Positions 10,174 through 41,091 of a stretch of DNA of 64,000 bases are shown here, one piece after another. Origin of the DNA: Myxococcota bacterium (lineage in GTDB: Bacteria > Myxococcota_C > UBA6777). The number at the start of each line of letters is the position of its first letter. Position 1 is the first letter of the stretch. Position numbers and translations under genes: made by a program. The notes below the pieces were generated by a model, which saw nothing but the letters and a program-made list of their open reading frames with translations, ran no database searches and was not told the DNA's origin. Where the stretch lies: contig JAKLKB010000006.1 of assembly GCA_023150835.1 (NCBI GenBank), positions 1 to 64,000 of the forward strand, read 5' to 3'.

Positions 10174-10338
10174 CGCAGGGCCTTGTCTCGAAAGTGTTTT
10201 TGGCGCTATCGTGCGGGGTGTTTTGTGACACTTTGGCGGCATAGCTTGCGCGGTTCGTTGGGGCTGCTTAAACAAAGCCGCGAAGAGGGCGTCATGGCCC
10301 TCGAAACCAAAGACCCTGTAGAAAGAAAGGTTAGATGG

Positions 10339-14531: not shown

Positions 14532-14721
14532 GCGGCTTCCTTTGTGGATGTGGGCGCGAGGTTGCGCGAGTGAGATGCTTCGCTCGTGGCTGTCGCAAGG
14601 GCGTCTATCCTAGGGCCAAGCGAACAAAAGGTCAACGTACGGCTTGGCTTGGTGTAGGGTGGTGTGTAGGGTGGATGTGCAACAATCGAAAAGTGCGATC
14701 GTTTGGGTCGAGGAGGTAAGG

Positions 14722-15963
14722 ATGACGATGAGCTTGGAAAAAGCGGTGGATGGGAGCGAAGTGGTTTCGTGTCGGCATTGTGGGCGGAAGAATCGGATCT
14801 TGGTAGAGCGTGCGTTGGAGGAGCCTGCCTCGTTGCGATGTGGGGCGTGTCGGGGAGGGCTGTTGTTGGAGACGACGGAAGCGTATGTGGGGCTGAGCGG
14901 TCGGGCCTATCAGCATCCGTGGGATCGGGAGGCATTGGCGGCGTTGCAGAAAGTGCCGGGGATCGACTCGCTGTTGCGGTGGTTGGTGTCGGAGAGTTTC
15001 GAGCGTGCATCGCGGATGTATCACGTTTCTTCGTACATTCGATGTCATGAGCGTCAGGGCAAGGCGTTGTATCGGATGTATCGGGATGTATCGGAGCGGC
15101 TGGATATCCAAGAAGTGCCGGAGTTGTTTTTGTATCGAGGGGGCGGGATGAATGCCTATACAACGGGGGTTCGGAAGCCTTTGGTGGCGTTGTCGGCGGA
15201 GCTGGTGGAGGGATTGGAAGATCAAGAGCTGCGCGGAGTGATAGCGCATGAGTTGGGGCATTGGCAAAACGATCACGTTCTCTACAGCATGGCGGCGCAG
15301 TTGTTGGGCAATTTTGCGGGGGCGATGGCGATCTCGGTGTTGGGTTTGGGGACGTTGGCGATGATGCCGTTGCGACTGGCGCTGTTGAAGTGGATGCGAT
15401 GTTCGGAGTTGACGGCAGATCGGGCGGAATTGATCGCGGTACGTGATCCGCGAGTGGTGATCCGCACGTTGATGAAGATCGCGGGAGCGACGCCGCGATT
15501 GATGGAGCAGCTTGATCTGGACAGCTTTTTGGAACAAGTCGACGAGGCCGAACAGATGGAACAAGAGCAGATCTTGAATCGCGTCTTTTCGCTGATGCAG
15601 TCGGTGTTTCGTACACATCCGTTGGTGGCGTGGCGCGCATCAGAGTTGATGCGGTGGGCGCGTAGTGGACAGTATGTGCAGTTGATGGCGGGCCATTATC
15701 TGCGGCGTGGAGACGAAGAAGCGCGAGATTGTGAGGCGTGTCATCGCCCTTATACGGCGTCTTTGGAGCGATGTCCGCACTGCGGTCATCGAGCGGGCGA
15801 GCGGGTCGCAGAAAAGACCGAAGAGAAGGACTTTTTCACACAAGTGCAGGATATGCTGCCGAACGGAGTGCAGGATGCGGTGGCGCAAGGTACTTCGTGG
15901 CTCAAAGGATGGTTTGGGGGAGACGAGCGAAGCGAGGGCCAAGGGCCGCAAAAACCAAAGTGA
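14722..15963 (+). CDS. M48 family zinc metallopeptidase with N- and C-terminal zinc ribbons
   Basis: MNAYTTG, IAHELGH, ELTADRA, THP; CxxC pairs at both ends; GAGGAGG RBS before ATG 14722. Confidence 0.85.
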   Translation: MTMSLEKAVDGSEVVSCRHCGRKNRILVERALEEPASLRCGACRGGLLLETTEAYVGLSGRAYQHPWDREALAALQKVPGIDSLLRWLVSESFERASRMYHVSSYIRCHERQGKALYRMYRDVSERLDIQEVPELFLYRGGGMNAYTTGVRKPLVALSAELVEGLEDQELRGVIAHELGHWQNDHVLYSMAAQLLGNFAGAMAISVLGLGTLAMMPLRLALLKWMRCSELTADRAELIAVRDPRVVIRTLMKIAGATPRLMEQLDLDSFLEQVDEAEQMEQEQILNRVFSLMQSVFRTHPLVAWRASELMRWARSGQYVQLMAGHYLRRGDEEARDCEACHRPYTASLERCPHCGHRAGERVAEKTEEKDFFTQVQDMLPNGVQDAVAQGTSWLKGWFGGDERSEGQGPQKPK

Positions 15964-16194: not shown

Positions 16195-17508
16195 GTGTGC
16201 GTGGTTTCACAAGACGCGGTCGATGCGCTTGTACGAAGAAGAGAAGGAATCAAGATCTTGATCAATCCAGCCGATTATAGCTTGGCCGATTTTTATTACA
16301 GTGAGACCAATGATCCGACGTGTCCGCCGCCCGAGTTTACGGCGTGGCGTGAGGCGGGAGCGTGGGCGATGTCGTTGATGGAACCTGCGTTGCACGGCCC
16401 CGCGATTCCGCGTGTTTCGATCTATCGTGCGGGACACGATCAAAAGGTGATCAACCTGTCGTCTTACAACTACATGGGGATGGCGCATCATCCTGAAGTG
16501 ATCGAAGCCGCCAAGCAAGCGTTGGATAAGTACGGTGTCGGCGCTTGTGGATCTCCGCTCTTGTCGGGGCTTTCTGATCTTCACCGTGAGTTGGAAGTGA
16601 AGCTTGCGGCGTTTTTGGGCCGCGAGGCAGTGATGCTTTACAACAGCGGTTTTGGCGCAGCGATGGGCGCTTTGGCGGGGATGTTGCGCAAGGGCGACAC
16701 GGCGATCTTGGACGCAAAGTGCCATCTTTGCGCGATGGATGGGGCTTCGCTGTCCAAAGCCAAGCGGGTGTTTTTTGATCACAACAGCGCAGCTTCTTTG
16801 GAAGAAGCGCTGTCGAAGAGCGAAGGGCAGCGGCGTTTGGTGGTGTTGGAGGGGGTGTATTCGATGGATGGCGATGTGGCGGATCTTCCGGCGTTGTTGG
16901 AAGTGACCCGTCGTCATAAAGCCAGTGTGTTCATCGACGAAGCGCACTCGCTGTTGGTGTACGGCAAGCATGGGCGCGGTGTGGCTGAGCATTTCGAGGC
17001 AGAAGCCGATATCGCGGTGATGTTTGGCACGTTCAGCAAATCTTTCGCAGGGGTGGGCGGATTTGTTGCGGCCAAAAAAGAACTGGTGGATTACCTGCGT
17101 TATTACAGCAACCCCTACGGTTTTAGCTGTGCCTTGCCGCCCTCGGTGGTTGCGGCGTTGTTGAAGGTCTTGGAGATCTTCCAACGCGACGATTCATTGC
17201 AAAAACGCCTGTGGGACAACACGCATTACTACCGTTCGCAGCTTTTGCAGATGGGGGTCAATATCGGGGAGTCGACTTCGCAAGTGGTTCCGATCGTGAT
17301 CGGCTCGAATCGTTTGTTGTTGTACCAACTCTGCCACGAGATGAACGAAAAGGGCCTGTTCTTGGCTCCTGTGGATTATCCCTCTGTTCCCGAAGGGCAG
17401 CTGCGTTTTCGCTCGGCGATCACAGCCGCCCACACCCGCGAAGATCTCGACGAAGCACTTCAGATCATCGAAGACACAGTGGTCAAACGCCTCAAAGAAC
17501 AAGGCTAA
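16195..17508 (+). CDS. PLP-dependent alpha-oxoamine synthase, serine palmitoyltransferase-like
   Basis: SSYNYMG, EGVYSMDGD, IDEAHS, GTFSKS (PLP Lys), YPSVPEG. Start codon uncertain. Confidence 0.85.
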   Translation: MCVVSQDAVDALVRRREGIKILINPADYSLADFYYSETNDPTCPPPEFTAWREAGAWAMSLMEPALHGPAIPRVSIYRAGHDQKVINLSSYNYMGMAHHPEVIEAAKQALDKYGVGACGSPLLSGLSDLHRELEVKLAAFLGREAVMLYNSGFGAAMGALAGMLRKGDTAILDAKCHLCAMDGASLSKAKRVFFDHNSAASLEEALSKSEGQRRLVVLEGVYSMDGDVADLPALLEVTRRHKASVFIDEAHSLLVYGKHGRGVAEHFEAEADIAVMFGTFSKSFAGVGGFVAAKKELVDYLRYYSNPYGFSCALPPSVVAALLKVLEIFQRDDSLQKRLWDNTHYYRSQLLQMGVNIGESTSQVVPIVIGSNRLLLYQLCHEMNEKGLFLAPVDYPSVPEGQLRFRSAITAAHTREDLDEALQIIEDTVVKRLKEQG

Positions 17509-17540
17509 ACCCAACACGAAGGCCCCACAGACGCGATCGA

Positions 17541-17676
17541 TCTGCTCCAAACGCGAACGATACCGATAAACGCGGTAGGTCTGCTCCAAACGCGAACGAT
17601 ACCGATAAACGCGGTAGGTCTGCTCCAAACGCGAACGATACCGATAAACGCGGTAGGTCTGCTCCAAACGCGAACG
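17541..17676. repeat. Intergenic tandem repeat, 39 bp x 3.5
   Basis: TCTGCTCCAAACGCGAACGATACCGATAAACGCGGTAGG, identical copies. Confidence 0.95.
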
Positions 17677-17963
17677 GCTCTTCTCCATGCAAAACAGCTC
17701 TTCATCCATGCGGAAGGGGGTACGTTTTGCGGCGCATACAGTATCGCGGCACGTTTACGCCACGAGTGTTGTTTTTGTGCAACACCGAATGCGGTGGATG
17801 GGCTGTGGGGGTGCGGGTTGAGCGTGTTGTATCTTGCGGTGGTTCGGTCTTTTTGGATCGAGTCACAGTGTGGAATGTGACGTATGGCGTAGGGTTTGCT
17901 AAGGAGAGAAGAGGCTTTTTTGGAGTCGTGGTTTGTTGTGGGTGAAGAGGCGAGGTGTGTGAG

Positions 17964-18935
17964 ATGGCGATGGTATGGATGTTTCCGGGACAGAGTTCGC
18001 GCTATGCAGGGATGATCGAAAAGCTGGTGTCGTTGCATGATGCCAATCGGGTGTTGTTGGGCCGAGCATCGGAGCTTTTGAATCGGGACGTGGGGGCGTG
18101 TTATGCGTCTTCGCGCAGCGAAGAAGAGATGTTTGCGAGCAATCGCGATGTGCAGATCGGTGTTTTTCTTGCGAATCAGATGTTTTTGCAGATCTTGGAA
18201 GCGGCAGGATTGAAGGCGGATTACTCGCTTGGTTTGAGCTTGGGCGAGTGGAATCATCTGGTGCATATCGGTGCGGTTTCGTTTGATCAGGCGTTGTTGG
18301 CGGTGGAGCAGCGGGGCTTGGCGTATGATGCGGGTCCACGCGGTTCGATGGCTTCGGTGTATCCGGCGTCGGTGGAAGACTTGGAGCCGATCTTGGAGCG
18401 ATCCCGAGCTTTTGGGGTGGTCGAGGCCGTGAATCTGAACTCGCCACGCCAGCAAGTGATCTCAGGAGAGACCGCAGCTCTCGATGAAGCCGTGCGTTTG
18501 ATCGAAGAAGAATTGTTTTTGCAGCCCGTGATCATCGAGCGCCAAGTGCCGATGCACGCATCGATCTTTCGCCCCGCAGGCGAGCAGTTTCGAGCGCATC
18601 TAACCAAGATGCGATTCCAAAAGCCCGCGCTACCGTATCTTCCAAATCGTTTGGGACGCATCCAAGAATCCCCCACCCAAGAAGACTTTGTGGAACTGCT
18701 GTCTTCGCATGTGTACAGCCCTGTGCTGTGGCGGCATTCGATCGATTTTTTGGTGGAACGCCACCCGAACGCGGTGTTTGTCGAGGTGGGGCCGCGTGGT
18801 GTGCTGCATAATTTGTTGGATCGTCGGTGGCATCGAGATATCCGCAAGTTCAAGATGGATAGCGCCCAAGACACCGAAGCGCATCAACAAGAAACGATCG
18901 CAGCGCTTCGTCAATTGGCTGAAGAGACCGTGTAA
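17964..18935 (+). CDS. ACP S-malonyltransferase (FabD-like AT)
   Basis: WMFPGQ, GLSLGE (Ser nucleophile), NLNSPRQQVISG, PMHAS, SPVLW, EVGP. Confidence 0.9.
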   Translation: MAMVWMFPGQSSRYAGMIEKLVSLHDANRVLLGRASELLNRDVGACYASSRSEEEMFASNRDVQIGVFLANQMFLQILEAAGLKADYSLGLSLGEWNHLVHIGAVSFDQALLAVEQRGLAYDAGPRGSMASVYPASVEDLEPILERSRAFGVVEAVNLNSPRQQVISGETAALDEAVRLIEEELFLQPVIIERQVPMHASIFRPAGEQFRAHLTKMRFQKPALPYLPNRLGRIQESPTQEDFVELLSSHVYSPVLWRHSIDFLVERHPNAVFVEVGPRGVLHNLLDRRWHRDIRKFKMDSAQDTEAHQQETIAALRQLAEETV

Positions 18936-19085
18936 AAAGCCAATTGGCTGAAGAGACCGTGTAAAAAGTCAATTGGCTGAAGAGACCGTGTAAAAAGTCA
19001 ATTGGCTGAAGAGACCGTGTAAAAAGTCAATTGGCTGAAGAGACCGTGTAAAAAGCCAATTGGCCGAAGAGACCGTGCAAAAAAG
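18912..19085. repeat. Tandem repeat, 29 bp x 6; first copy contains the AT stop codon
   Basis: CAATTGGCTGAAGAGACCGTGTAAAAAGY repeated. Confidence 0.95.
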
Positions 19086-19100
19086 AAGGACAGAGATCGG

Positions 19101-19652
19101 ATGGACGTGGAGAAGTTGGTGCGTCGGATGCGGCGCAAGCGCTTGTTTGAGATCGGGGAGGGGGCCGAACAAGTGAGGCTGGGGCGCGATGCGATCAAGC
19201 AGATGATCCCGCATCGTGAGCCGTTTTTGTTGTTGGATCAGATCGATACGGTGGATCTTTCGCAGGTCGCGATGATCGCACGTCGAACGATCGATCCGAG
19301 CGATCCGATCTTGCGAGGGCATTTTCCCGGAGATCCCGTTTATCCCGGGGCTTTGTTGTTGGAGATGTTGGGGCAGGCGATGTTGTGTTTGAACCACCTC
19401 AATAACCTCGGACGGACGGCGGTTTTCCCCGAAGATCGGCCAAGACCTGTGCGTTTGATGAAGCTGTATCACGCGCTGTTTCTGGCCGAAGTTCGGCCTG
19501 ACGAAGAGATCGAGCTTTTGGTGCAAAAGATCGATGGAGGCGAATACACGTTGACTTGCGCGGGGCAGGTGTGCAAGGGTGACGCGATTTGCACCGTCAC
19601 CGTGATGGAAGTCTATCTTGTTGAGGAAGAGACGGAAAGGAGTGCGCTTTGA
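19101..19652 (+). CDS. FabZ/FabA-like 3-hydroxyacyl-ACP dehydratase
   Basis: IPHREPFLLLDQI and GHFPGDPVYPGALLLEMLGQ (His/Glu dyad). Confidence 0.9.
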   Translation: MDVEKLVRRMRRKRLFEIGEGAEQVRLGRDAIKQMIPHREPFLLLDQIDTVDLSQVAMIARRTIDPSDPILRGHFPGDPVYPGALLLEMLGQAMLCLNHLNNLGRTAVFPEDRPRPVRLMKLYHALFLAEVRPDEEIELLVQKIDGGEYTLTCAGQVCKGDAICTVTVMEVYLVEEETERSAL

Positions 19653-20938
19653 GCGAGCAAAAGCGACGGGTTGTTATTACGGGCATGGCCATCAACACAA
19701 AATTAGGCGATACGCTCGACGGCTTTTATGAAAGCCTGATCGCGGGCAAGTCAGGTCTTGTGAACTGGCAATTTGTGAACACAGACGGCATCTATTCGAA
19801 AGTGGGCGGAGATTTGAGCGATTATGACGTGGACGGAAAAGCCGCAGCGCTCAAAGAGACCATGCCTACGGAAGAATGGAAACGGCTGCGCAAGCTGTTG
19901 CGCGGTGCGCCCTTTTCGACGCGATTGTCGATTCTGTGTGCTTCGGATGCTTGGTTGGATGCGGGTTTGCACAAAGCGGGCATCGATCCGACGCGAGTTT
20001 CCGCAGTTGTGAGCGGTCACAACCTCAACAAATACTACGATTATGTGATCGATCGGCAATTTGCCGAAGAGCCTGATTATATGGACCCGATGGCGTCGGT
20101 GCGTTCGTTGGATACGGATCATGCGGGTTCGGTGGCCGAAGTGTTGAATATCCAAGGCTCGATCTACACGATGGGCGGGGCGTGTGCATCGGCCAACGTC
20201 GCCTTGCGTACAGCCATCGACGAAGTGCGCCACCATGAACACGATGTGGCGCTTGTGGTGGGGGCTGCGTTGGAATTTTCGCCGATGTCGCTGCATGCGA
20301 TGGCGTTGATGGGCGCGATCTCGTTTAAGTCTTTCAACGATTGTCCCGAAAAGGCCAGTAGACCGTATGATATGGCCCGAGAGGGCTTCATTCCTTCGCA
20401 TGGTGCGGCTGTTTTGGTGGTGGAGACATTGGAACACGCCAAGGCACGGGGAGCCAAGATCTACGCCGAGGTCTTGGGCGTCGAAGCGATGTCGGACGCC
20501 AACCACTTGCCGAATCCCTCGCTGGATGGGCAAGCCCGCACGATGAATCGCTTGTTGAAAGTGACGGGTGTTTCGCCCGATAGCATCGACTACGTTTGTG
20601 CGCACGCGACGTCGACACCGCTTGGCGATTTGACGGAACTGGGTTCGATCAAAAAGGTGTTTGGTGCGCACGCTCCAAAACTCAAGATCAACGCGCCAAA
20701 GTCGATGCTTGGCCATACTTGTTGGTCGGCTCCTGCGGTGGAGACCGTTGCTGCGGTGATGCAGATGCAGCGTGGCTGGTTGCATCCTTCGATCAATATC
20801 GAAAACATCGACCCCAACGTCGACTTGCAAGTTTGCCCCAACGAACCTGTCAAACACCAGATCCGCTTGATGCTGAAAAACTCTTTTGGTTTTGGTGGGA
20901 TCAACTGCTGTAGTCTATTGAAGTTGTACGAAGATTAA
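19649..20938 (+). CDS. Discrete beta-ketoacyl-ACP synthase (FabF/PksF-like), catalytic Cys intact
   Basis: RRVVITG, GGACAS, SRPYD, AHATST, KSMLGH, KNSFGFGG; overlaps the upstream gene by 4 nt. Confidence 0.92.
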   Translation: MSEQKRRVVITGMAINTKLGDTLDGFYESLIAGKSGLVNWQFVNTDGIYSKVGGDLSDYDVDGKAAALKETMPTEEWKRLRKLLRGAPFSTRLSILCASDAWLDAGLHKAGIDPTRVSAVVSGHNLNKYYDYVIDRQFAEEPDYMDPMASVRSLDTDHAGSVAEVLNIQGSIYTMGGACASANVALRTAIDEVRHHEHDVALVVGAALEFSPMSLHAMALMGAISFKSFNDCPEKASRPYDMAREGFIPSHGAAVLVVETLEHAKARGAKIYAEVLGVEAMSDANHLPNPSLDGQARTMNRLLKVTGVSPDSIDYVCAHATSTPLGDLTELGSIKKVFGAHAPKLKINAPKSMLGHTCWSAPAVETVAAVMQMQRGWLHPSINIENIDPNVDLQVCPNEPVKHQIRLMLKNSFGFGGINCCSLLKLYED

Positions 20939-20967
20939 GGGCTTGAGCGACTTGTGGGCAAAAAAAG

Positions 20968-21084
20968 CCGTGTTCGCGCCATTTCAAGCGGCAACGCCGA
21001 TGGTTTGAAAAGCGACGATTCACCCCGCCAAAACGGGGTCAAGGGGGCGAAGACCCTTTGCGGGGTGTGGTACCTCGCCCCACA
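20968..21084 (+). repeat. Dispersed structured repeat family A copy
   Basis: CCGTGTTCGCG..TTTCAAGCG..TGGTTTGAAA..ACGGGGTCAAGGGGGCGAAGACCCTTTGCGGGGTGTGG..CCCCACA. Confidence 0.8.
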
Positions 21085-21103
21085 AGATCATCCAGCCGTG
21101 TCG

Positions 21104-21339
21104 TACGAAATCCGCTCGTTGTGTGATCGCAAAACGTAGGGGCAGACAGGTGTGGTTGCCCGACAATCGGGTGTCTACGCACTATCCTACGGGAACAGAT
21201 CACTCGGATATCGTGTCAGTCCGATAATACGAGATCCGCAGGGAGCGTGATCGTAAAACGTAGGGGCAGACAGGTGTGGCTGCCCAAGGATAGGGCGTCT
21301 GGGCGCTATCCTTCGATCATAGATCACTCGGATATCGCA
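21104..21339 (+). repeat. Two tandem copies of family B (GTAG-REP-containing, ~110 bp)
   Basis: TACGARATCCGC...GTAGGGGCAGACAGGTGTGGYTGCCC...CACTCGGATATCG at 21104-21215 and 21228-21339. Confidence 0.85.
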
Positions 21340-21384
21340 TAAGAAGTCGAAAGTTTGAAGCTTTGTGGGAGAAAAAGAAATTCA

Positions 21385-22131
21385 ATGATCTATTTTATTA
21401 CGGGCGGCTCAAGAGGTATCGGGGCGGGTGTGGTGTTGGATGCGGTGCAGCGCGGGCATGATGTGGCGTTCACCTACGTGCAAAGCGAAGAAGGAGCCGC
21501 CAAGATCGAAGAAGAGGCTCAGCGTTTGAATCCGTCGGTGCGTTGTAAAGCGTATCGTTTGGATGTGCGCAAAGCCAAAGAAGTCGAGCAGGTGGGTGAT
21601 CAGGTGCTTGCGGACTTTGACACGGTGGATGTGGTGATCAACAACGCCGGGATCAGCCGCGATCAAACGGTCGTCGGGATGTCGGATGAAGAATGGGACG
21701 ATGTGATCGCCGTCAACCTGACAGGGACGTTTTATGTCTGTCGGTTTTTCTTGATGGGGATGGTGGGGAATCGCTTTGGTCGGATCATCAACGTGTCGTC
21801 GTTGTCGGCGTATGGGGCGTCTGGACAATGCAACTACGCAGCGGCCAAAGCGGGCTTACATGGTCTGACGCAAACTATCGCTAAAGAGTACGGTCGCAAG
21901 GGCATTACAGCAAATGTCGTGGCTCCGGGTTTTTTTGAGACCGATATGACACGCGATGCTTTGCCCGAGCATATGCGGCAGTTTTGGCAAAAGTGGTCTC
22001 CCGTCCCCAAAGGTCGGATCGGAGATATCAAAGAACTGAGCGCGACGATCCACTTTTTGGCCTCGAAAGAAGCGGCGTTTGTCAACGGCCAGATCATCAA
22101 CGTGACGGGTGGGTTGGATTGGTCGCCCTGA
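21385..22131 (+). CDS. 3-oxoacyl-ACP reductase (FabG-like KR)
   Basis: TGGSRGIG, NNAGI, YAAAK, VAPGFFETDM. Confidence 0.9.
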   Translation: MIYFITGGSRGIGAGVVLDAVQRGHDVAFTYVQSEEGAAKIEEEAQRLNPSVRCKAYRLDVRKAKEVEQVGDQVLADFDTVDVVINNAGISRDQTVVGMSDEEWDDVIAVNLTGTFYVCRFFLMGMVGNRFGRIINVSSLSAYGASGQCNYAAAKAGLHGLTQTIAKEYGRKGITANVVAPGFFETDMTRDALPEHMRQFWQKWSPVPKGRIGDIKELSATIHFLASKEAAFVNGQIINVTGGLDWSP

Positions 22132-22251
22132 TCGCGTCTTCGTCTCGTCGCACGACAGGAGCCGCGTTGGGCTTGTCGCACGACAGGAGTCGTGTTGGGG
22201 ATGGGGAGAAGTGTGAGTGTCGAAGGCGTTTTGTAGGAGAGAAGTGTAAGG

Positions 22252-23481
22252 ATGCAACGTGTAGGGATTGAAAAGATTTGGGTGTACCCCTGTTCGATGT
22301 TTTTGGATCTATCTGAACTGGCCGCTGCACGGGGATTGTCGCCAAGTTATCCGATGGAGAACTTGATGATGCGTGCGCGAGGGGTGAACCCGTGTTGGGA
22401 AGATCCCGTGACGATGGCGGTCAATGCGGCCAAGCCGATGTTGACGCAAGAAGATCGTGATTCGATCGAGTTGTTGATTGTGGGAACGGAGTCCTCGCCC
22501 GATCAAGGCAAGCCGATCAGCACCTTTGTGCATCGATTTTTGGGTCTATCGGAAAACTGCCGAAACTTTGAGACGAAGCATGCTTGTTATGGCGGGACGT
22601 GCGCGGCGATGATGGCGGCGCATTGGGTGGCGTCGGGTGCTGCGGGAGATGCGAAAGCCTTGGTGATCGCGACCGATCAGTCGCGGATGCACTTGGGTGC
22701 GCCTTGGGAGTATGTGTTGGGGGCGATCAGCGTGGCGATGTTGATCTCCAACAAGCCGAGCGTGCTGGAGTACGATCTGCGCGACAACGCGTATTGGACA
22801 AAAGAAGTGGGAGATACTTTTCGCCCGACCTCTCGCGAAGAAGCCGGAAACACCGAGCAAAGCGTCTTTTGCTACCTTGAAGCTCTCGAAGGGGCCTTTG
22901 CGCATTATCGGCGCAAGCAAGGCGGGATGGTGGATATGAATGCGCGCTTTCAGAAGCATATCTACCACGTACCGTTTTCGGGCATGGTGCAACGCGCCCA
23001 TCGCCAGATCATGCGCGATGCACACGGGATGTCTCGCAAAGAAGCGGATGCCCACTTTGATCAACGGGTGCGCGGAAGTTTGGTGTACAACTCCCAGTGT
23101 GGCGGGACATATACAGCAGCCACATTTCTTGCATTGACGGGGCTGTTGGATCAATACAGCGATTTGAACGCAGGGGATCGTATCAGCATCTTTGCGTATG
23201 GTTCGGGATCTTGTTCGGAGTTTTATTCGGGGTTTATCGGTGATCAAGCCCGTGAGCGCGTTGCAAAAGCCGATGTACAGGGCAGAATCGATGCGCGTTA
23301 TCGCCTGAGCGTCGAAGAGTACGAAGCTGTCGAGAAAGAGCGCACAAGCTACATCGATCTGCCGACCTACCAGCCGCCCAAAGAAGGATTCAACAACCAC
23401 TACAAGGCGTTTTACGAAGGCAAGGGCTATCTTGTCTTGGATGGTTTGGACGGATATTTCCGTCATTATGCGTGGAGTTGA
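22252..23481 (+). CDS. HMG-synthase-like beta-branching enzyme (PksG/HCS type)
   Basis: EDPVTMAVNAAKP, GTES, FETKHACYGGT, HVPFSGMV, FAYGSGSCSEFYSG; followed by two ECH genes. Confidence 0.9.
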   Translation: MQRVGIEKIWVYPCSMFLDLSELAAARGLSPSYPMENLMMRARGVNPCWEDPVTMAVNAAKPMLTQEDRDSIELLIVGTESSPDQGKPISTFVHRFLGLSENCRNFETKHACYGGTCAAMMAAHWVASGAAGDAKALVIATDQSRMHLGAPWEYVLGAISVAMLISNKPSVLEYDLRDNAYWTKEVGDTFRPTSREEAGNTEQSVFCYLEALEGAFAHYRRKQGGMVDMNARFQKHIYHVPFSGMVQRAHRQIMRDAHGMSRKEADAHFDQRVRGSLVYNSQCGGTYTAATFLALTGLLDQYSDLNAGDRISIFAYGSGSCSEFYSGFIGDQARERVAKADVQGRIDARYRLSVEEYEAVEKERTSYIDLPTYQPPKEGFNNHYKAFYEGKGYLVLDGLDGYFRHYAWS

Positions 23482-23508
23482 CGGGCTGTGCGCTGGGTGG
23501 CCTCGTCA

Positions 23509-23621
23509 TACGATATCCGAGAGATGTATGCACAAACGAGAGTACGCGGATGCCCGATTCTTGGGCAGCCACACCTGTCTGCCCCGACCTCTTTACGATA
23601 GCGCAACAGGCCGATCTCGTA
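23509..23621 (-). repeat. Family B REP-like element copy
   Basis: TACGATATCCGA...TTGGGCAGCCACACCTGTCTGCCCCGAC...CCGATCTCGTA. Confidence 0.8.
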
Positions 23622-23659
23622 GGAGTCCCTGAATCTTGGTGCGTGAAGGGTATGTTTTG

Positions 23660-24619
23660 ATGAGCATGGAACTTCGGTGGAGAGAGCAACAGAGAAGCGT
23701 GTGGCGTTTGCAGATGATGCCTGTGGAGGCTACACGAGCCGAGATATCGTTGGATAGTGCGGCGTTGCGGGATTGGGAACAGAAGCTCAAAGAAGCCGAA
23801 GAGGCGGAGATTCGGGTGTTGGTGATCGAGGGTGTGGGGGGGATGTTTTGTCAGGGGATGGATCTGGGGGCGCGTTTGATGGCGTATCCGCAACCTCCGA
23901 TGGGTCCGTCATCGCGAGATGAAGCGCACGAGATCGATGCGCATTATACGCCAACACCCGGGATCTTGCGTGCGCTGCACGGTCGTACTGTGTTGGATGA
24001 TGTGACGGCTGCGGCACTGCGCGACGATGTGAAGCGTTATGCGGCGTTGCTGTGGGCATTGCGACGCGCTGCATTTGCGGTGGTGGCGTTGGTGGATGGT
24101 GAGGTGATGGCGGGTGGAGTGGGCCTGATGGCGGCGGCGGATCAGGTGTTGGCGACGAAGCGATCGCGTGTGGGTTTGCCGGAGGCTTCGTTGGGCTTGT
24201 TGCCTGCGGTGGTGTTTCCTGTGTTGTGTGAGCGTGTCCCTGCACAAAAAGCCCGATGGTTGGCGATGCGCAGCGTGGGGATGGAGTCGGCAGAAGCGTT
24301 GGCGCTTGGGCTGTTTGATGCGGTTTACGAAGATGCGGAGGCTGTGGAGAAGGCAAGTCGTGAGAGTTTGCGCGCTTTGTTGCGGGCGCATCCGCAAGCG
24401 ATCGCCGATCTCAAACGCCGCACTACGGAAACGCCGAAGGCATCGCTGCAAGATGCGTTGGATGAAGCTGCGGAGTATACGGCCTCTTGTTTGATGCTTC
24501 CTGATCGTGTAGAGGGCATCCGTCGTTTCTTGCAAGGAGAGCCTTTGCCTTGGCAAGAACGCTTGCCTCGCAGAGAAGATCGTTCCCACCCATCGGATCC
24601 ATCGCGATCCTCCGAGTAG
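23660..24619 (+). CDS. Enoyl-CoA hydratase-like ECH1 (PksH-type dehydratase) with internal insertion
   Basis: FCQGMDL, DGEVMAGGVGLMAAAD, LPEASLGLLPA. Confidence 0.85.
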   Translation: MSMELRWREQQRSVWRLQMMPVEATRAEISLDSAALRDWEQKLKEAEEAEIRVLVIEGVGGMFCQGMDLGARLMAYPQPPMGPSSRDEAHEIDAHYTPTPGILRALHGRTVLDDVTAAALRDDVKRYAALLWALRRAAFAVVALVDGEVMAGGVGLMAAADQVLATKRSRVGLPEASLGLLPAVVFPVLCERVPAQKARWLAMRSVGMESAEALALGLFDAVYEDAEAVEKASRESLRALLRAHPQAIADLKRRTTETPKASLQDALDEAAEYTASCLMLPDRVEGIRRFLQGEPLPWQERLPRREDRSHPSDPSRSSE

Positions 24620-24638
24620 ACAACGCCGAAAGCACGGG

Positions 24639-25409
24639 ATGTCGAGCATGACAGAAGCTTTGATCACACTTCACTACGAAGAATCAGGGATCGTGATCTT
24701 GCAGATGCAAGATCAAGCCAAGAAAAATGCCCTTGGGACGGTCTTTGTTGAAAAGCTGACGGAGGCTTTGCATCAAGTGGCACAGCGTGCCGAAGTGCGA
24801 GTGTGCGTGTTGCGAGGACTGGAAGAGGTGTTCTGTGCAGGCGGCGATGAGGAGATGTTGTTGGCATTGGCACAGGGCAAGATCGTGGCGTCGGATATCA
24901 TGTTGTCGCGGACGATGCTCGAAGTACCGATCCCAACGATCGCAGTGATGGAAGGCCACGCTGTGGGTGGGGGTCTGACGCTTGGTTTGTGCTGCGATAT
25001 CGTGATGATGGCGCGGGAAAGTCGCTATGGCTGTAGCTTTATGAACATGGGATTTACGCCCGGGATGGGTACGACGCGCTTGTTGGCCTTGGCGGTGGGT
25101 GAGTACATCGCTGCGGAGATGATGTTGGGGGGGCAGTTTTTTCGGGGCGCGCACTTCGAGGGGCGTTCACAGATCAACTACATCTTGCCGCGTGAGCAGA
25201 TGTGGCGAAAAGCCATGCAAGTGGCCGCAGCGATCGCAGAAAAACCGCGATTTGCGTTAGAGATGCTCAAGCGCGATCTGTCGTTGAAAAAACGACGCCT
25301 CTTTGAAGAAGCCCGCACCAACGAAGTGCCGATGCACCAGTACTGCTTTGCTTTGCCCGAGACGGCTCAGCGTATCCAAGAAAACTACGTCTCCACAAAG
25401 AAACACTAG
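24639..25409 (+). CDS. Enoyl-CoA hydratase-like ECH2 (PksI-type decarboxylase)
   Basis: MQDQAKKNA, FCAGG, GHAVGGG, FMNMGFTPGMGTT, C-terminal MHQYCF. Confidence 0.88.
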   Translation: MSSMTEALITLHYEESGIVILQMQDQAKKNALGTVFVEKLTEALHQVAQRAEVRVCVLRGLEEVFCAGGDEEMLLALAQGKIVASDIMLSRTMLEVPIPTIAVMEGHAVGGGLTLGLCCDIVMMARESRYGCSFMNMGFTPGMGTTRLLALAVGEYIAAEMMLGGQFFRGAHFEGRSQINYILPREQMWRKAMQVAAAIAEKPRFALEMLKRDLSLKKRRLFEEARTNEVPMHQYCFALPETAQRIQENYVSTKKH

Positions 25410-25471
25410 CCGAAACAAAAAGATATCCGATTACAAAGATATCGGTTCTTTGCATCAGAAGGAGCTTTGGG

Positions 25472-26281
25472 ATGCGCAATGATCTTCGCGGAAAAGCGGT
25501 CTTGATCACGGGTGGAACCAAAGGGATTGGTTTTGCGATCGGTCTGGCGTTTGGAAAGTTGGGCGCACACACCTATTTGACGCATCGTTGGGGTTCGGCG
25601 GACGAAAACAAGATCCGCGAACAGTTCGCAGCAGCGGGCGCACCGACACCGCAGATCGTCGAGGCCGATGTGGTCAACGATGACGATCTCAAGCGGTTGT
25701 TGGCGCTGATCCAGCAAGATCACGAACGCATCGAAGTGTTCGTCAGCAACGTTTGCGTTGTTCAGCCTGCCAACGGCGTAGACAGCTACAAAAAACGCTC
25801 GCTGCTGCGGAGTTTGGAGTACAGCGCTTGGCCCTACGTCAACTACACCATGCAGATCAAGAAGACTTTTGGGACATATCCGCGTTATGTGGTGGGGATA
25901 TCGAGCGATGGCCCCGACAACTACTTTAGCCACTACGAATTTGTCGCCGCCTCGAAGACGGTGATGGAAACTTTTTGCCGTTATATGGCTTCTCGCCTAT
26001 ACAAAGAGGATGTGCGCTTCAATGTGATCCGCACCCGTAGCGTCCCGACCGAAGCGGTGCTGGAGATCTTTGGGGAGGATTACATCAAGTTTTTTGGAAA
26101 GTATGCCGGCGAAGAATACTTTGTCCAGCCCGAAGAGGTCGCTGATTCGGTGATCGCGCTGTGCAGCGGTATGTTGGATAGCCTCAACGGCCAGATCGTT
26201 TTGATTGACAAAGGCTCGTCTTTCGCGGATACCCTGATGCGTTTGATGGAAAAACGTCACACGTTGGGCCTGTCGTTGTAA
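25472..26281 (+). CDS. SDR, FabL-like enoyl-ACP reductase 1
   Basis: ITGGTKGIG, FVSNV and the Y-x6-K motif YEFVAASK. Confidence 0.75.
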   Translation: MRNDLRGKAVLITGGTKGIGFAIGLAFGKLGAHTYLTHRWGSADENKIREQFAAAGAPTPQIVEADVVNDDDLKRLLALIQQDHERIEVFVSNVCVVQPANGVDSYKKRSLLRSLEYSAWPYVNYTMQIKKTFGTYPRYVVGISSDGPDNYFSHYEFVAASKTVMETFCRYMASRLYKEDVRFNVIRTRSVPTEAVLEIFGEDYIKFFGKYAGEEYFVQPEEVADSVIALCSGMLDSLNGQIVLIDKGSSFADTLMRLMEKRHTLGLSL

Positions 26282-26335
26282 GCCCGCGTAGGGCGCGTGA
26301 TAAAATGGAAAAATAGAAACAAAGGAATAGGAACC

Positions 26336-26593
26336 ATGACTAAAGAAAAAATTTTCTCGATCGTGAAAAAAAACTTGCTTGATATCCTCGAAGATGCCGA
26401 TGAGAGTGCGGTCACTCCCGATAAATCGATGAAAGAACTCGGCGCAAACAGCTTGGATATCGTCGAAGTGGTGTCCACGAGCATGCGTGAATTGAAAGTC
26501 AAGATCCCCCGCTCCGAACTCAATACGCTGACCAACATCGGCCAATTGGTCGATGCGTTGTATGCCGCTGTCAACAACAAAGTGGACGCTTAA
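26336..26593 (+). CDS. Acyl carrier protein (GANS motif, AcpK-like)
   Basis: 85 aa, acidic, LGANSLDIVEVV. Confidence 0.92.
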   Translation: MTKEKIFSIVKKNLLDILEDADESAVTPDKSMKELGANSLDIVEVVSTSMRELKVKIPRSELNTLTNIGQLVDALYAAVNNKVDA

Positions 26594-26624
26594 ATCCTTG
26601 AAACCACACCCCACCGCTCATCCG

Positions 26625-27461
26625 ATGATCAAAAATGACTTTCGTGGAAAAGCGATCTTGATCACGGGCGGCACAAAAGGCATCGGCCTTGCGATCGCGC
26701 TTGCGTTTGCACGAGAAGGGGCGCACGCTTACCTCACTTACAAGTGGGGAAGCGCGTCTCTCGACAGCATCCGCGAAACGTTCCGCAACGAAGGGCTTTT
26801 TGAGCCGATCTTGATCGAAGCCGACGCCTCGAACGAAGAAGACACCGACATGGTGCTTCGTCGCATCAAGGAAGATCACGAACACATCGAAGTGTTTGTC
26901 AGCAACGTCTCTTTTTCGCAGCTTGTATCCGATGAAAGCTCCTACAAAAAGCGCTCGTTCCTTAAAAGTTTGGAATACAGCGCGTGGCCTTTTCTCGGAT
27001 ACTCGCAAAAGATCAAGCAGACCTTCGGTCGTTATCCGCACTATATCCTCGGAACATCGAGCTTTGGCGTCGATACCTACTACATCCAGTACGACTTTGT
27101 CGCTGCTTCAAAAGCTGTGATGGAGACTTTTTGTCGATACATGGGCAAGCATCTTCTCAACGAAGGTGTGCGAGTCAACATCTTGCGCTCGCGCCCTGTC
27201 GCCACCGATTCACTTCGGGCCACTTTCGGCGAAGGCTACGAAGCTTTTGCAAAAAAGCATTTTGGTGAAGAGGCGTTTGTCACCGTCGAGGAAGTCGGCG
27301 AAGCAGCTCTGGCGATGTGCAGCGGCCTGATGGACGCCATGACCGGACAAGTCCTAATGATCGATCACGGCGTCACCTTCCACGACAACATCCAGTACAT
27401 GTTTGAACATCGCGATGAGATGGGCTTTGAGGCGCTTCTTGCCGAAGTCGAAAACAAATAA
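26625..27461 (+). CDS. SDR, FabL-like enoyl-ACP reductase 2 (paralog of 25472-26281)
   Basis: ITGGTKGIG, FVSNV, YDFVAASK; shares long blocks such as SYKKRS..SLEYSAWP and VMETFCRYM with copy 1. Confidence 0.75.
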   Translation: MIKNDFRGKAILITGGTKGIGLAIALAFAREGAHAYLTYKWGSASLDSIRETFRNEGLFEPILIEADASNEEDTDMVLRRIKEDHEHIEVFVSNVSFSQLVSDESSYKKRSFLKSLEYSAWPFLGYSQKIKQTFGRYPHYILGTSSFGVDTYYIQYDFVAASKAVMETFCRYMGKHLLNEGVRVNILRSRPVATDSLRATFGEGYEAFAKKHFGEEAFVTVEEVGEAALAMCSGLMDAMTGQVLMIDHGVTFHDNIQYMFEHRDEMGFEALLAEVENK

Positions 27462-27537
27462 GTCCACGGAAAACACGGAAAACACGGAAAGGGGCAGGAA
27501 AGGGGCAGGAAAGGGGCAGGAAAGGGGCAGGAAAGGG
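27461..27537. repeat. (CACGGAAAA)3 motif followed by 11-bp GGAAAGGGGCA x4
   Basis: AGTCCACGGAAAACACGGAAAACACGGAAA then GGGGCAGGAAA repeats, between convergent genes. Confidence 0.9.
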
Positions 27538-27540
27538 AGT

Positions 27541-28398
27541 TTACGAAAGAAGAGGAGAGGCGGCGGTGGCTCGTCGGACCCAGTTTTGGGCGAGCATACC
27601 GCCGTTGTCGATCAAGGACTCTTCGAGAAGAAAAGCGGGCAGAGGGGTTTGTTCGAGGCGGGAGAGCAGGGCCAAGTCGGCGTGAGGATGGGCTTGATAG
27701 AGGCGAAAGAGAGCGGCGATGCTTTTGGAGCCGAGGCGGAGATCAGCGGTGCTTTTGGAGCCGAGGCGGAGATCAGCAGTGCTTTTGGAGCCGAGGCGGA
27801 GATCAGCAGTGCTTTTGGAGCCGAGGCGGAGATCAGCAGTGCTTTTGGAGCCGAGGCGGAGATCAGCAGTGCTTTTGGAGCCGAGGCGGAGATCAGCGGT
27901 GCTTTTGGAGCCGAGGCGGAGATCAGCGGTGGGGTGGGCTTCGCCGTCCTCTTCGCCAAAGGGTCCGATCTCGCGAGCGCCGATGCCGAGGATCATGCGA
28001 CTGAAAAGCAAGCGTTGACGGGCTTGTTGGAGAAATCGTGGATCGAGGATCGACAGCAGGGCAGCCCATTGTGGAGTGACCCACGAGCCGCGATCAAAGC
28101 ATTGCCAAGCGAGGGAGAGTGTGTGCGGATCATGCAGGCTTGGGGAGACGAAGATCGCGCCGACCGCGACGAGGTTTTCGCGCCAGTTGGAGTCTTGGAT
28201 CAGAGCGTGAACTTTGGAGGTGAGGTGGGGGATCGGGCGGAGAACCTCTTGGACGGTGCGGAATAACGCGGTGGTTGCGAGCGGATCTTCGTAAAGATTG
28301 AGCAGCGCGTGTATGGGTGAGATGCGCTGTTGGTTTCCAACAAAAAGCGGCGCAAAGTCTTGGCGAAGCGCTGCGGAAGGGGTGAGTTGGGCGGACAT
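27541..28398 (-). CDS. Hypothetical protein with in-frame 10-aa repeats
   Basis: ATG 28398 with AGGAG upstream; non-repetitive flanks (NWRENLVAV, GSWVTPQWAA); TADLRLGSKS x7. Confidence 0.6.
   Translation of the reverse strand: MSAQLTPSAALRQDFAPLFVGNQQRISPIHALLNLYEDPLATTALFRTVQEVLRPIPHLTSKVHALIQDSNWRENLVAVGAIFVSPSLHDPHTLSLAWQCFDRGSWVTPQWAALLSILDPRFLQQARQRLLFSRMILGIGAREIGPFGEEDGEAHPTADLRLGSKSTADLRLGSKSTADLRLGSKSTADLRLGSKSTADLRLGSKSTADLRLGSKSTADLRLGSKSIAALFRLYQAHPHADLALLSRLEQTPLPAFLLEESLIDNGGMLAQNWVRRATAASPLLS
27721..27930. repeat. Coding tandem repeat, 30 bp x 7
   Basis: GCTTTTGGAGCCGAGGCGGAGATCAGCRGT. Confidence 0.95.
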
Positions 28399-28549
28399 AG
28401 GGCGCTCCTGTTTGTACAAAAGGCAAGAGATCCTGCATCGTTGGGTGGGGGCGCAGGTGGCTCTCAAGATAGTTTGGGGCGGTGCGGATGGCCAGACGCG
28501 AAGAGAAGTTCGGCTTTTTCTTTGCTCGTGCGCTTGACGTTCTGTTTTG

Positions 28550-28567
28550 TATGGATAATTGTCCATA
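28550..28567. promoter_or_regulatory. Putative BrnA operator palindrome
   Basis: TATGGA-TAATTG-TCCATA inverted repeat ~30 bp upstream of brnT. Type II antitoxins typically autorepress at such sites (inference). Confidence 0.45.
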
Positions 28568-28597
28568 TACGATAAACCACCCAAGAAAGGAAAGCGT

Positions 28598-28873: not shown

Positions 28874-29204
28874 CGAAATCGATATCCTACGAGAAGAGAT
28901 TCTCGCGAGGAAACCGAACCCCGATTCGATTTCTCGCGGGCTTGAGCGTAGAAAACAGCGATTGCAAGAGGCCATAAAAACGAAAATATCCATCCGCATC
29001 GACGAGGACATTTTGCAAGAGTTTAAAGCCCTCGCACAAGGGAAAGGCTATCAAGCACTGATCAATCAGGCGCTTCGCGAATGGTTGGTGGTCGGTGGTC
29101 TGAGGGAACTTTTGCGCGAAGACGTGGAGCAACTCATCCAGCACACCATCCAAACAACCCTTTCTTCCGTTCAAAACCCGGTACAAAAAAGAGCGAGCAA
29201 ATAG
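28854..29204 (+). CDS. brnA: BrnA family antitoxin
   Basis: KTKISIRIDEDILQEFK...GYQALINQALRE. Confidence 0.85.
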   Translation: MSTEKPDEIDILREEILARKPNPDSISRGLERRKQRLQEAIKTKISIRIDEDILQEFKALAQGKGYQALINQALREWLVVGGLRELLREDVEQLIQHTIQTTLSSVQNPVQKRASK

Positions 29205-29290
29205 GGTCGCCACGATTTGCAGTAGCGGTCCTGTTCTTGGGCAGCCACGGGGCTGCATCTGCCGATCACAGCACGGAGGATTTTGTATCA

Positions 29291-29411
29291 TACGATCTCC
29301 GAGAGACGTGTGATCGAAGGGTAGGTGCGATCCGCTGTAGACGCCCTATTGTTGGGCAGCCACTGGGGGCTGCCCCTACGTTTTTCGGTCACAGCATGGA
29401 GGGATTTCGTA
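29291..29411 (-). repeat. Family B REP-like element copy (degenerate partial copy at ~29237-29288)
   Basis: TACGATCTCCGA...TTGGGCAGCCACTGGGGGCTGCCCCTAC...GGGATTTCGTA. Confidence 0.75.
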
Positions 29412-29864
29412 TCACTCGCTTTCGATCCATCGCTTTCGCTCCTCTACGGTCGGTATCCTGCAAGCGTTGTATCGTCCAAAAAGGCGGTAGCGGTAGCGCG
29501 CAAAAAGGCGATAAAAAGCGTTGAGTAAAAAAAGCGGTATCCATCTCATAAAGATCAAGGATGGAAAAAGGCGGGGGTATATTTCTCGGGCTGCACGACC
29601 ATCGAGCAACAACGTCTCCGAAGGGGTGCCCGCATGGAGCAGCAAATAGATACCATCGATATCGTCTATTTTGCCACCGTGGCGTTGCAAAGCAGCACGC
29701 GCATAACCTCCTTGAAGATAAGCAAAAAAGAACTGCTTTTTCGCATCGTGTTTCAACAAGAAATGGACAAACCAATTGCAGTACACGCAGGTTCCGTCGA
29801 TAAAGACGACGTGGCGTTGGTTGGGGATGGCTCGTTCGGGCGGAGGTTCGATCATGGCGGTCAC
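29412..29864 (-). CDS. DCC1-like thiol-disulfide oxidoreductase (DUF393)
   Basis: [10 protein letters not shown] (DxxCxxC) and [16 protein letters not shown]. Confidence 0.88.
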
Positions 29865-31471: not shown

Positions 31472-31707
31472 CAACGCTTCCTTGGCTCGTGGTCTGTGAG
31501 CGATGGGTGGCCGTTCGTTGCGACACCCCATCCAACGGGCTTCTCGTGTGACCCTGTTTGGAGCGTCTCTTGTACCCACAATCTTCGACCACAACAAGGG
31601 GGTATGTCCTGTTCGTGGAGGGTGGATTCGTTTCTTCGTCGTGCTGTTTGAAATGCCGCGAACACGGGGGGTTTCCTATCTATTGCTTTGTTGGGCCGTC
31701 GCGTGGT

Positions 31708-40871: not shown

Positions 40872-41091
40872 GGTAGGGAACCTCCGAGCCAAAAAAGCAA
40901 CTCAAAAAGAGCAGGCATGATGCGGCTGCGCAAATGTTCGGTCAAGGGGCAAGGAGGGTGGGGCTGGCCTTGTGTTTGAAGGGGTGCCGATCCAAACTAG
41001 CGTGTTGTTGGATGATAGGAACGATCGATACGGGAGAGATGGAATGGTCCGCACAAGAAGACGAGAACAGCAAGGGAAGGGGGATAGGAAG

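Follow-up and report, generated by a model that had tools for sequence, protein, structure and literature searches.

The stretch analyzed here in full, 64,000 nucleotides long (the window), comes from the 7.56-Mb metagenome-assembled genome (93% complete) of an uncultured sludge bacterium, and carries at positions 16195–27461 a run of 11 discrete genes, all on the forward strand. We think it reasonably probable, judging from the predicted proteins and their genomic contexts, that this operon encodes an iterative type II fatty acid synthase (FAS)/polyketide synthase (PKS) that is self-contained and furnished with a beta-branching cassette centered on a 3-hydroxy-3-methylglutaryl-ACP synthase (HMGS), and that its chain would be released onto an amino acid by an alpha-oxoamine synthase (AOS). 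The product would probably be a methyl-branched sphingolipid-like amino lipid. At the level of architecture the evidence for this reading is good; the genes form a real and conserved set that is so far uncharacterized. A self-contained FAS-like line had been proposed in an earlier note on this DNA, and it has gained ground here through a full set of discrete enzymes, intact motifs, a conserved gene order and a search that found no PKS partner. Those of the note's refuting conditions that were put to the test all turned out in its favor.

Open reading frame (ORF) listing combined with Pfam and NCBIfam searches recovered all 11 co-oriented genes of the earlier note, each with its position, strand and rank, in the order AOS, acyltransferase (AT), dehydratase (DH), ketosynthase (KS), ketoreductase (KR), HMGS, two crotonases of the enoyl-CoA hydratase superfamily (ECH1 and ECH2), a short-chain dehydrogenase/reductase (SDR1) of the enoyl reductase (ER) type, an ACP (acyl carrier protein) and one further such reductase (SDR2). 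AT, KS, KR, DH, ER and ACP are all present as discrete proteins with catalytic motifs, as in a type II FAS. The KR has the YxxxK signature in the form YAAAK, the His...Glu motif of the DH (HFPGDPVYPGALLLE) is intact, and both SDRs show the Y-x6-K spacing of enoyl reductases; the active-site motif of the AT reads GLSLG, not GHSxG. The two SDRs are ~53% identical and their paralogy is detectable even in the DNA (repeat families D3 and D6). Against the models for housekeeping FAS enzymes, the AT scores 146.7 bits (FabD, TIGR00128; cut-off 260.9), the KR 254.8 bits (FabG, TIGR01830; cut-off 297.75) and the DH 59–67 bits (FabZ; the best 66.9 versus a cut-off of 113).

The HMGS cassette is known as a tailoring device that installs beta-branches on large modular PKSs, and it is with the proteins of such cassettes that the central genes of the operon group. 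In the PDB the HMGS finds its best matches in CurD (266.7 bits) and PksG (259 bits), as against 242.9 bits for MvaS of M. xanthus, and its residues E80, C112 and H239, which presumably form the catalytic Glu/Cys/His triad, do not vary among the 27 aligned homologs. It shares no more than 43% identity with any of 38 HMGSs encoded on plasmids (six of these were inspected, all in PKS/NRPS-type, i.e. polyketide or nonribosomal peptide synthetase, contexts) and 44–96% with 80 related HMGSs from metagenomes; of those with a visible context, most belong to like operons. In a tree rooted on MvaS-like paralogs, six PKS reference HMGSs form one clade (support 99), with 34 HMGSs of the operon’s family as its sister group (93, not starred); this tree and that of the KSs are quick reconstructions with long branches and few references. 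The crotonases make up the ECH1 dehydratase and ECH2 decarboxylase pair typical of PKS cassettes: ECH2 exceeds the cut-off of NF005496 (285.6 versus 215 bits), while ECH1 has its best match below the cut-off (NF005498, 114.9 versus 250 bits), is 29–35% identical to PKS ECH1s and bears an insertion of ~65 residues that separates the two oxyanion-hole segments.

The KS likewise finds its best NCBIfam match in a ‘polyketide beta-ketoacyl:ACP synthase’ model (NF005490/PRK07103, 351.8 bits), as against 316.8 bits for FabF (cut-off 493.75). Whereas the reference PKS-cassette KSs are of the non-condensing type with Ser in 4/4 cases, the operon KS has an intact Cys-His-His triad and its active-site Cys is kept in 31/31 orthologs. 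These 31 form one clade (99), which unites with the four cassette KSs of the Ser type (99 for the union) and stands apart from the FabF-like proteins. Hence, the operon KS would be a Cys-retaining relative of the decarboxylating KS of the cassettes and, as its residues suggest, a real condensing enzyme. The operon ACPs are highly conserved, align with the donor ACPs of the cassettes and share with them the G-A-N-S-L-D motif.

The GTDB phylum of the source genome holds only six species genomes, of which five retain the core order AT-DH-KS-KR-HMGS-ECH1-ECH2-ER-ACP-ER; an HMGS ortholog of at least 64% identity is likewise present in five of the six and missing from the remaining one, G005 (genomes are designated G, contigs C and loci L; the source genome is G000). 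In the three genomes of genus g1 the AOS and the ten further genes follow in the same order, and in the sister genus g2 the ten genes are followed by a metallo-beta-lactamase-fold hydrolase, with no AOS. A metagenome scan by HMGS alignment yielded 80 loci, analyzed by tblastn. KR and/or KS genes of the cluster type stand upstream of HMGS in 42 of the 50 loci that have at least 1 kb of upstream sequence, the eight exceptions being L032, L067, L074, L088, L093, L095, L098 and L103. The HMGSs of L067 and L103 adjoin large multidomain KS-bearing ORFs (997–2597 residues) and nest within the operon-type sister group of the HMGS tree; they may represent independent recruitment of this HMGS family into type I PKS pathways. 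Among the 80 metagenome loci, of which many end too soon to include this region, two ER copies were detected in 27. The same order in five of six phylum genomes and in dozens of metagenome contigs means that this is not a chance juxtaposition. All-against-all ORF clustering of the 31 loci of at least 9 kb, L002, L012, L013 and the window revealed no further widely conserved neighbor.

Outside the phylum the distribution is patchy. A KS ortholog was found in one of 395 unrelated genomes sampled and in 8 of 99 genomes of a second GTDB phylum (7 of 11 in one family); the single locus of that phylum that was checked, L146, carries the cassette, in the order KS2-KS-KR-HMGS-ECH1-ECH2-ER-ACP-AOS-DH-PPTase (the last a phosphopantetheinyl transferase). 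Named HMGS homologs with 54–57% identity come from Nannocystis, Enhygromyxa salina, Gemmatimonadota and Planctomycetota, and AOS orthologs with 59–67% identity are as numerous as the HMGS homologs. Cultured Nannocystis and Enhygromyxa strains have an HMGS of the operon’s family (WP_096333436.1 and WP_421068350.1 of Nannocystis exedens/pusilla, WP_106392243.1 of Enhygromyxa salina); that they also share its gene context is presumed from the HMGS identity (56%) and, for a Nannocystis metagenome-assembled genome, from HMGS and AOS hits on contigs of equal length. Near-identical DNA occurs in sequencing runs labelled as activated sludge, wastewater and aquatic metagenomes.

We then asked what else in the genome such a cassette could serve or draw upon. 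In line with the earlier note, no modular PKS or NRPS was found in the window among its non-shadow ORFs of at least 400 residues; its 3289-residue ORF (40972–50841, +) encodes a TPR/PQQ repeat protein. That note had also allowed for a remote type I PKS. A whole-genome Pfam search for KS domains returned 12 matches, and the large KS-bearing ORFs among them are a PfaA-like (2318 residues) and a PfaC-like (2592 residues) protein of a Pfa-type polyunsaturated fatty acid (PUFA) synthase, a 3409-residue FAS I and a 980-residue protein resembling a KS and chain-length factor (KS-CLF-like); no modular or trans-AT PKS was among the KS matches in this 93%-complete genome. No FabF exceeds the cut-off in any of the six phylum genomes, the best FabF-like match in g1 being the operon KS, no FabZ does so either, and the PP-binding matches of the source genome number only four. 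As no housekeeping type II FAS was found, the operon cannot borrow reductive enzymes and must be self-sufficient, and it does encode every enzyme type that such self-sufficiency would need. The other HMGS of the genome, which is MvaS-like, lies in a mevalonate operon on another contig (G000 C113, L016:9622–15774), and thus the HMGS studied here is not the one for isoprenoid supply.

Some features of these other systems may be recorded in their own right. The mevalonate operon combines the HMGS with a GHMP kinase, a diphosphomevalonate decarboxylase and a 735-residue fusion of a GHMP kinase and a polyprenyl synthase. The PUFA synthase (G000 C39, L110:2551–17282) consists of a PfaA-like KS-AT-KR-DH protein and a PfaC-like KS-KS-AT-FabA-FabA protein. 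The FAS I is of the fungal/Corynebacterium-Mycobacterium-Nocardia type, ~3400 residues long, with Fas1-like helical, SAT, MaoC, AT, ACP and KS domains (G000 C139, L111:1126–11355; also G001 C1, G002 C467, G004 C356 and G005 C37). A FAS I without FabF, FabH and FabZ that reach the cut-offs is unusual for bacteria labelled Myxococcota.

The AOS belongs to the pyridoxal phosphate (PLP)-dependent fold-type I AOS family, with its PLP-binding Lys in the motif TFSKS. Its best NCBIfam scores all lie below the respective cut-offs: TIGR01825 355.5, Kbl 337.6, BioF 336.4 and serine palmitoyltransferase (SPT) 323.2 bits, with the SPT models giving 323.2 (NF047600, cut-off 640), 309.6 (NF047599, cut-off 500) and 251.7 bits (NF047603, cut-off 670). 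Its best PDB matches are ThAOS (7poa/8s1y, 268–270 bits) and the Sphingobacterium SPT (3a2b, 264.6 bits). The source genome has one other close AOS, a bona fide Kbl (633.5 bits versus a cut-off of 493). On the point, raised in the earlier note, of whether AOS and cassette occur together elsewhere, an AOS adjoins the cassette in seven of the nine metagenome loci with both flanks visible (two upstream, five downstream), in three of the five cassette-bearing genomes of the phylum and in L146 of the unrelated phylum; counted flank by flank, it is upstream in 10 of 21 visible loci and downstream in 7 of 13. In a tree rooted on the Kbl paralogs, the cassette-linked AOSs fall into at least three distinct lineages.

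The company of the AOS also varies between lineages. In L078, L094 and L096 it is followed by homologous SDRs, that of L078 having as its best NCBIfam match 3-ketodihydrosphingosine reductase (NF049977, 278 bits versus a cut-off of 400) and being followed in turn by a SnoaL-like protein and a FAD oxidase. An epimerase-family reductase precedes the AOS in L071, and genes for Sfp-type PPTases adjoin the AOS or the DH in L050, L091 and L146 (in L050 and L091 they are beside the AOS). Where the AOS is missing, other proteins are found: a fatty-acyl-reductase-type NAD_binding_4 protein in L105, an alpha/beta hydrolase and a radical-SAM protein in L036, and an amine-oxidase-like flavoprotein and an SDR in L066. 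Hence, the ten-gene core looks like a conserved chain factory, with the AOS as the commonest of several exchangeable release modules. The part of the earlier proposal that made the AOS a member of one line is therefore to be recast: it is a frequent neighbor, but an exchangeable one, and what is universal is the core of ten genes. The 3-ketodihydrosphingosine-reductase-like SDR after the AOS in L078, with its homologs, hints at sphingoid bases and, indirectly, at an AOS that might use L-serine and a long-chain acyl thioester.

Beyond the gene content, motifs and synteny, which are directly observed, homology suggests the following course for the chemistry. The AT would put malonate on the single ACP, and the Cys-His-His KS would prime itself by decarboxylation of malonyl-ACP and then elongate the chain. 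Full reduction of the beta-keto group would, in ordinary cycles, fall to the KR (FabG-type), the DH (FabZ-type) and one of the FabI/FabL-type ERs. In at least one cycle the HMGS would add an acetyl unit to the beta-ketone, with ECH1 then dehydrating and ECH2 decarboxylating the adduct, and the second ER paralog would reduce the resulting 3-methyl-enoyl-ACP to leave a saturated beta-methyl branch; the conservation of two ER paralogs fits such a division of labor between ordinary enoyl and 3-methyl-enoyl intermediates. Once the acyl-ACP is complete, the AOS would condense it with a small amino acid, with loss of CO2; serine appears the likeliest, and glycine or alanine are possible. The release product would be a methyl-branched 2-amino-3-keto lipid, i.e. 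a sphingoid-base-like precursor, which in other lineages the adjacent 3-ketosphinganine-reductase-like SDR might reduce. Should this proposal hold, a single branch placed on acetoacetyl-ACP, giving an isovaleryl-type iso-terminal chain, would be our first guess, short of an even chance; an isoprenoid-like chain, with several branches at regular spacing, follows closely, and some other branch pattern might be expected about one time in four.

Several points weigh against this proposal. Every chemical step is predicted from homology, and so is the product. Some form of programming would be needed for HMGS and KR to draw on the same beta-keto intermediates. The single ACP looks donor-like and lacks the Trp that flags acceptor ACPs, and one carrier would have to be both acetyl donor and acceptor. 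The FAS-type proteins all fall under their NCBIfam equivalog cut-offs, so that they may act on other substrates than FabD/F/G/Z/I do. No FabH in the genome exceeds the cut-off (best 62.7 versus 292.1 bits), and there is no FabH-type priming KS. The grouping of the KS with those of the cassettes comes from a quick, long-branched tree, with identities of 30–33% versus 24–31% to FabF-like proteins. The AOS is equidistant from the Kbl, BioF and SPT models and in its PDB matches, for which reason its amino-acid substrate cannot be predicted. The core of the sister genus g2 (G003 and G004) has no AOS ortholog genome-wide, the best match being a 36–37% identical paralog common to all genomes, and L036 and L060 have no adjacent AOS. 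Finally, no 3-ketosphinganine-reductase-like gene stands beside the operon in the window’s own lineage, and the phylum genomes offer only generic SDR matches to that enzyme (151–214 bits versus a cut-off of 400), of a kind that occurs also in the cassette-less G005.

A bolder proposal, which we hold to be unlikely, is that isoprenoid-like saturated chains with regular methyl branches are made by the operon on ACP, independently of mevalonate, and that this system is also the source of the beta-branching cassettes of PKSs. HMGS branching would then alternate with ordinary reduction to put a methyl group on every fourth carbon. The chains would leave as phytanyl-like sphingoid bases, or in some other lineages as alcohols or acids. 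The PKS pathways would have recruited AT, ACP, KS(Ser), HMGS, ECH1 and ECH2 from a widespread FAS-like system with a condensing KS.

Slightly more doubtful again is a short-chain pathway, in which a C5–C9 branched acyl-ACP (e.g. isovaleryl- or 5-methylhexanoyl-ACP) would yield a small aminoketone, not a membrane lipid, that cyclizes or dimerizes to a pyrazine/pyrrole-type or CAI-1-like signal. AOSs also make small aminoketones, and the Kbl-, BioF- and CqsA-type models all score; the single KS without a chain-length factor, the patchy, accessory-like distribution noted above (1/395 and 8/99 genomes) and the tailoring genes beside the AOS in some lineages (SnoaL-like protein, FAD oxidase, amine oxidase) would also suit it. 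However, a conserved full KR/DH/ER set with two ERs exceeds the apparent need of one or two cycles, and the NAD_binding_4 protein of L105 and the sphinganine-reductase-like SDR are typical of long chains.

It is very unlikely, in our estimate, that HMGS, ECH1, ECH2, KS, AT and ACP serve a remote megasynthase (modular PKS, Pfa or FAS I) in trans, with KR, DH, ERs and AOS as unrelated neighbors. Such a role agrees with the donor-like GANS motif of the ACP, the grouping of the KS with cassette KSs and its best match to a polyketide KS model, and the large multidomain KS-bearing ORFs beside the HMGSs of L067 and L103, and at 93% completeness a PKS could be unassembled. It sits poorly, however, with the lack of a modular or trans-AT PKS in the searches of window and genome, with the retention of the KS Cys in all 31 orthologs, with a synteny that across phyla joins KR, DH and both ERs to the cassette, and with the absence of a megasynthase near any metagenome locus of at least 9 kb save L067 and L103. 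We give scarcely any credence to the idea that the operon is the cell’s housekeeping type II system, supplying acyl-ACP for lipid A, lipoate and the like. The operon KS is indeed the best FabF-like match in g1, there is no FabF, FabH or FabZ at cut-off, and no free-standing ACP match exists beyond those of this operon and of an operon on C160; yet G005, a 94%-complete genome of the same family, does without the operon, a housekeeping FAS has no use for HMGS/ECH genes or an AOS, and a KS ortholog was present in just one of the 395 unrelated genomes.

On the favored reading, a self-contained type II synthase with AOS release, beta-branching chemistry is apparently an integral part of a small iterative synthase, complete in itself and commonly found among environmental bacteria. 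If true, there would be an unrecognized class of bacterial methyl-branched amino lipids, with the methyl branches carried by acetate-C1-derived (odd-numbered) carbons, unlike branches derived from S-adenosylmethionine or methylmalonate, and bacterial routes to sphingoid bases would extend beyond SPT and PfSgaAB. The operon would also offer a living model for the origin of the PKS beta-branching cassettes, which the preprint 10.1101/509463 calls an open question. With an HMGS of this family in cultured Nannocystis and Enhygromyxa strains, the question is experimentally testable.

The coordinates of the genes and of the repeats between them are collected below. Alignments with orthologs indicate that the true starts of KR (~21385), ACP (~26336) and SDR2 (~26625) probably lie downstream of the longest-ORF starts given there.

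Table. Genes of the operon and repeats in its spacers (window coordinates).
Feature	Position	Strand	Family or best match
AOS, alpha-oxoamine synthase (PLP; BioF/Kbl/SPT family), proposed off-loading enzyme	16195–17508	+	Aminotran_1_2, E 5e-49
39-bp minisatellite in AOS–AT spacer	17524–17676		family D4, 3 copies
AT, FabD-like malonyl-CoA:ACP acyltransferase	17955–18935	+	Pfam Acyl_transf_1
29-bp tandem repeat, ~7 units, filling AT–DH spacer	18881–19112		family D2
DH, FabZ-type 3-hydroxyacyl-ACP dehydratase	19101–19652	+	Pfam FabA
KS, Cys-His-His triad, sole KS of the operon	19649–20938	+	Pfam ketoacyl-synt N and C domains
Two copies of a ~110–120-bp MITE-like repeat in KS–KR spacer	21104–21337		D5, I1–I4
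KR, FabG-type 3-ketoacyl-ACP reductase	21355–22131	+	Pfam adh_short_C2/KR
HMGS, HMG-ACP synthase-like	22252–23481	+	Pfam HMG_CoA_synt N and C domains
Inverted MITE-like copy in HMGS–ECH1 spacer	23508–23593		I1, I2, D8
ECH1-type crotonase (predicted dehydratase)	23636–24619	+	Pfam ECH_1, residues 134–308 only
ECH2-type crotonase (predicted decarboxylase), PksI-like	24639–25409	+	NF005496
SDR1, enoyl-ACP reductase paralog 1 (FabL/FabI-like)	25472–26281	+	Pfam adh_short_C2; best NCBIfam FabL
ACP, GANSLD motif	26297–26593	+	Pfam PP-binding
SDR2, enoyl-ACP reductase paralog 2 (FabL/FabI-like)	26553–27461	+	Pfam; best NCBIfam FabL

The 29-bp repeat duplicates the last codons of the AT gene together with its stop codon, and the KS–KR spacer, which houses two copies of the element resembling a miniature inverted-repeat transposable element (MITE), measures 193 bp in the close relative G002 versus 417 bp in the window. 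A further repeat region lies at 29203–29418, and MITE-like copies occur in both orientations. Three further ORFs were considered and set aside: 17211–17945, which has no Pfam match and sits in the repeat-filled AOS–AT spacer; 27403–28266, which has no Pfam match and is a shadow of a conserved minus-strand ORF (27541–28584); and a carboxyltransferase (29861–31597, −), a candidate supplier of malonyl-CoA, excluded from the cluster as its synteny is missing in L002.

Eight pieces of the operon are matched, at 0–1 mismatches, by contigs from RNA libraries X13 and X14, both made from a single sample, covering AOS, AT, DH–KS, KR, HMGS, ER1 and ACP–ER2; the divergent neighbor gene at 14701–15834 has almost no such cover, and libraries X17 and X19 gave only short, more divergent pieces. 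The MITE-like repeat reaches very high depth, as expected for a multi-copy repeat. Strand, ends and level cannot be read from these contigs and DNA carry-over is possible, and they are no more than consistent with the operon being transcribed.

The minus-strand ORF at 27541–28584 is convergent on the operon, 56–59% identical in L002 and without a Pfam or NCBIfam match, and has at least seven tandem 30-bp (10-codon) repeats at 27679–27961. Directly upstream of the operon region is a gene for a PIN-PhoH fusion protein (13104–14531, −), and farther off are a 678-residue protein with a lamin-tail domain (10183–12219, +) and a BshC-like protein of bacillithiol biosynthesis (1611–5369, −) near a GT4 glycosyltransferase, which suggests bacillithiol genes in the source lineage. 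Across the whole window the plus-strand GC skew is very pronounced (+0.12 to +0.45 in the majority of 2-kb windows) and peaks where genes sit on the minus strand.

As for precedents, we found no published characterization of this gene set in the full-text literature, although tables S173–S179 of 10.1101/509463 may list such clusters; that preprint mentions in passing a few HMGSs beside “type II PKSs” and leaves their role open. With the type II FAS (FabD/FabF/FabG/FabZ/FabI-FabL/AcpP) the operon has in common that each catalytic type is a separate protein with intact motifs; it differs in its scores below the equivalog cut-offs, its lack of FabH and its extra HMGS/ECH module and AOS. The alternative isovaleryl-CoA route of myxobacteria (MvaS, LiuC, AibA/B and AibC) operates on CoA thioesters, and its decarboxylase and reductase enzymes are unrelated to those of the operon. 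The iso-terminal variant of our proposal would share its chemistry, running from acetoacetyl via HMG, 3-methylglutaconyl and 3-methylcrotonyl to isovaleryl.

In Pseudomonas fluorescens MYb115, the PfSgaAB system, an iterative type I PKS with a discrete AOS, makes sphinganines (PMC12134224). The operon would likewise be a synthase outside the primary FAS whose chain a discrete PLP-dependent AOS off-loads onto an amino acid; it differs in being of type II, without a multidomain PKS, in having a beta-branching cassette and in its SPT activity being a prediction. Closest in content are the PKS cassettes themselves (bacillaene PksC/AcpK/PksF/PksG/PksH/PksI, curacin CurB–CurF and thiomarinol/mupirocin), with which the operon has six protein types in common: AT, small ACP, KS, HMGS, ECH1 and ECH2. 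The G-A/V-N/D-S motif of their donor ACPs is present in the operon ACP, and the operon HMGS and KS each group next to cassette proteins in the trees. In contrast, the cassettes have Ser in the KS (4/4) where the operon family has Cys (31/31), pair donor with acceptor ACPs where the operon has one ACP, and act in trans on acceptor ACPs of modular, mostly trans-AT PKSs, where for the operon no PKS was found; and it is the operon that unites KR, DH, two SDR-type ERs and an AOS with these six proteins.

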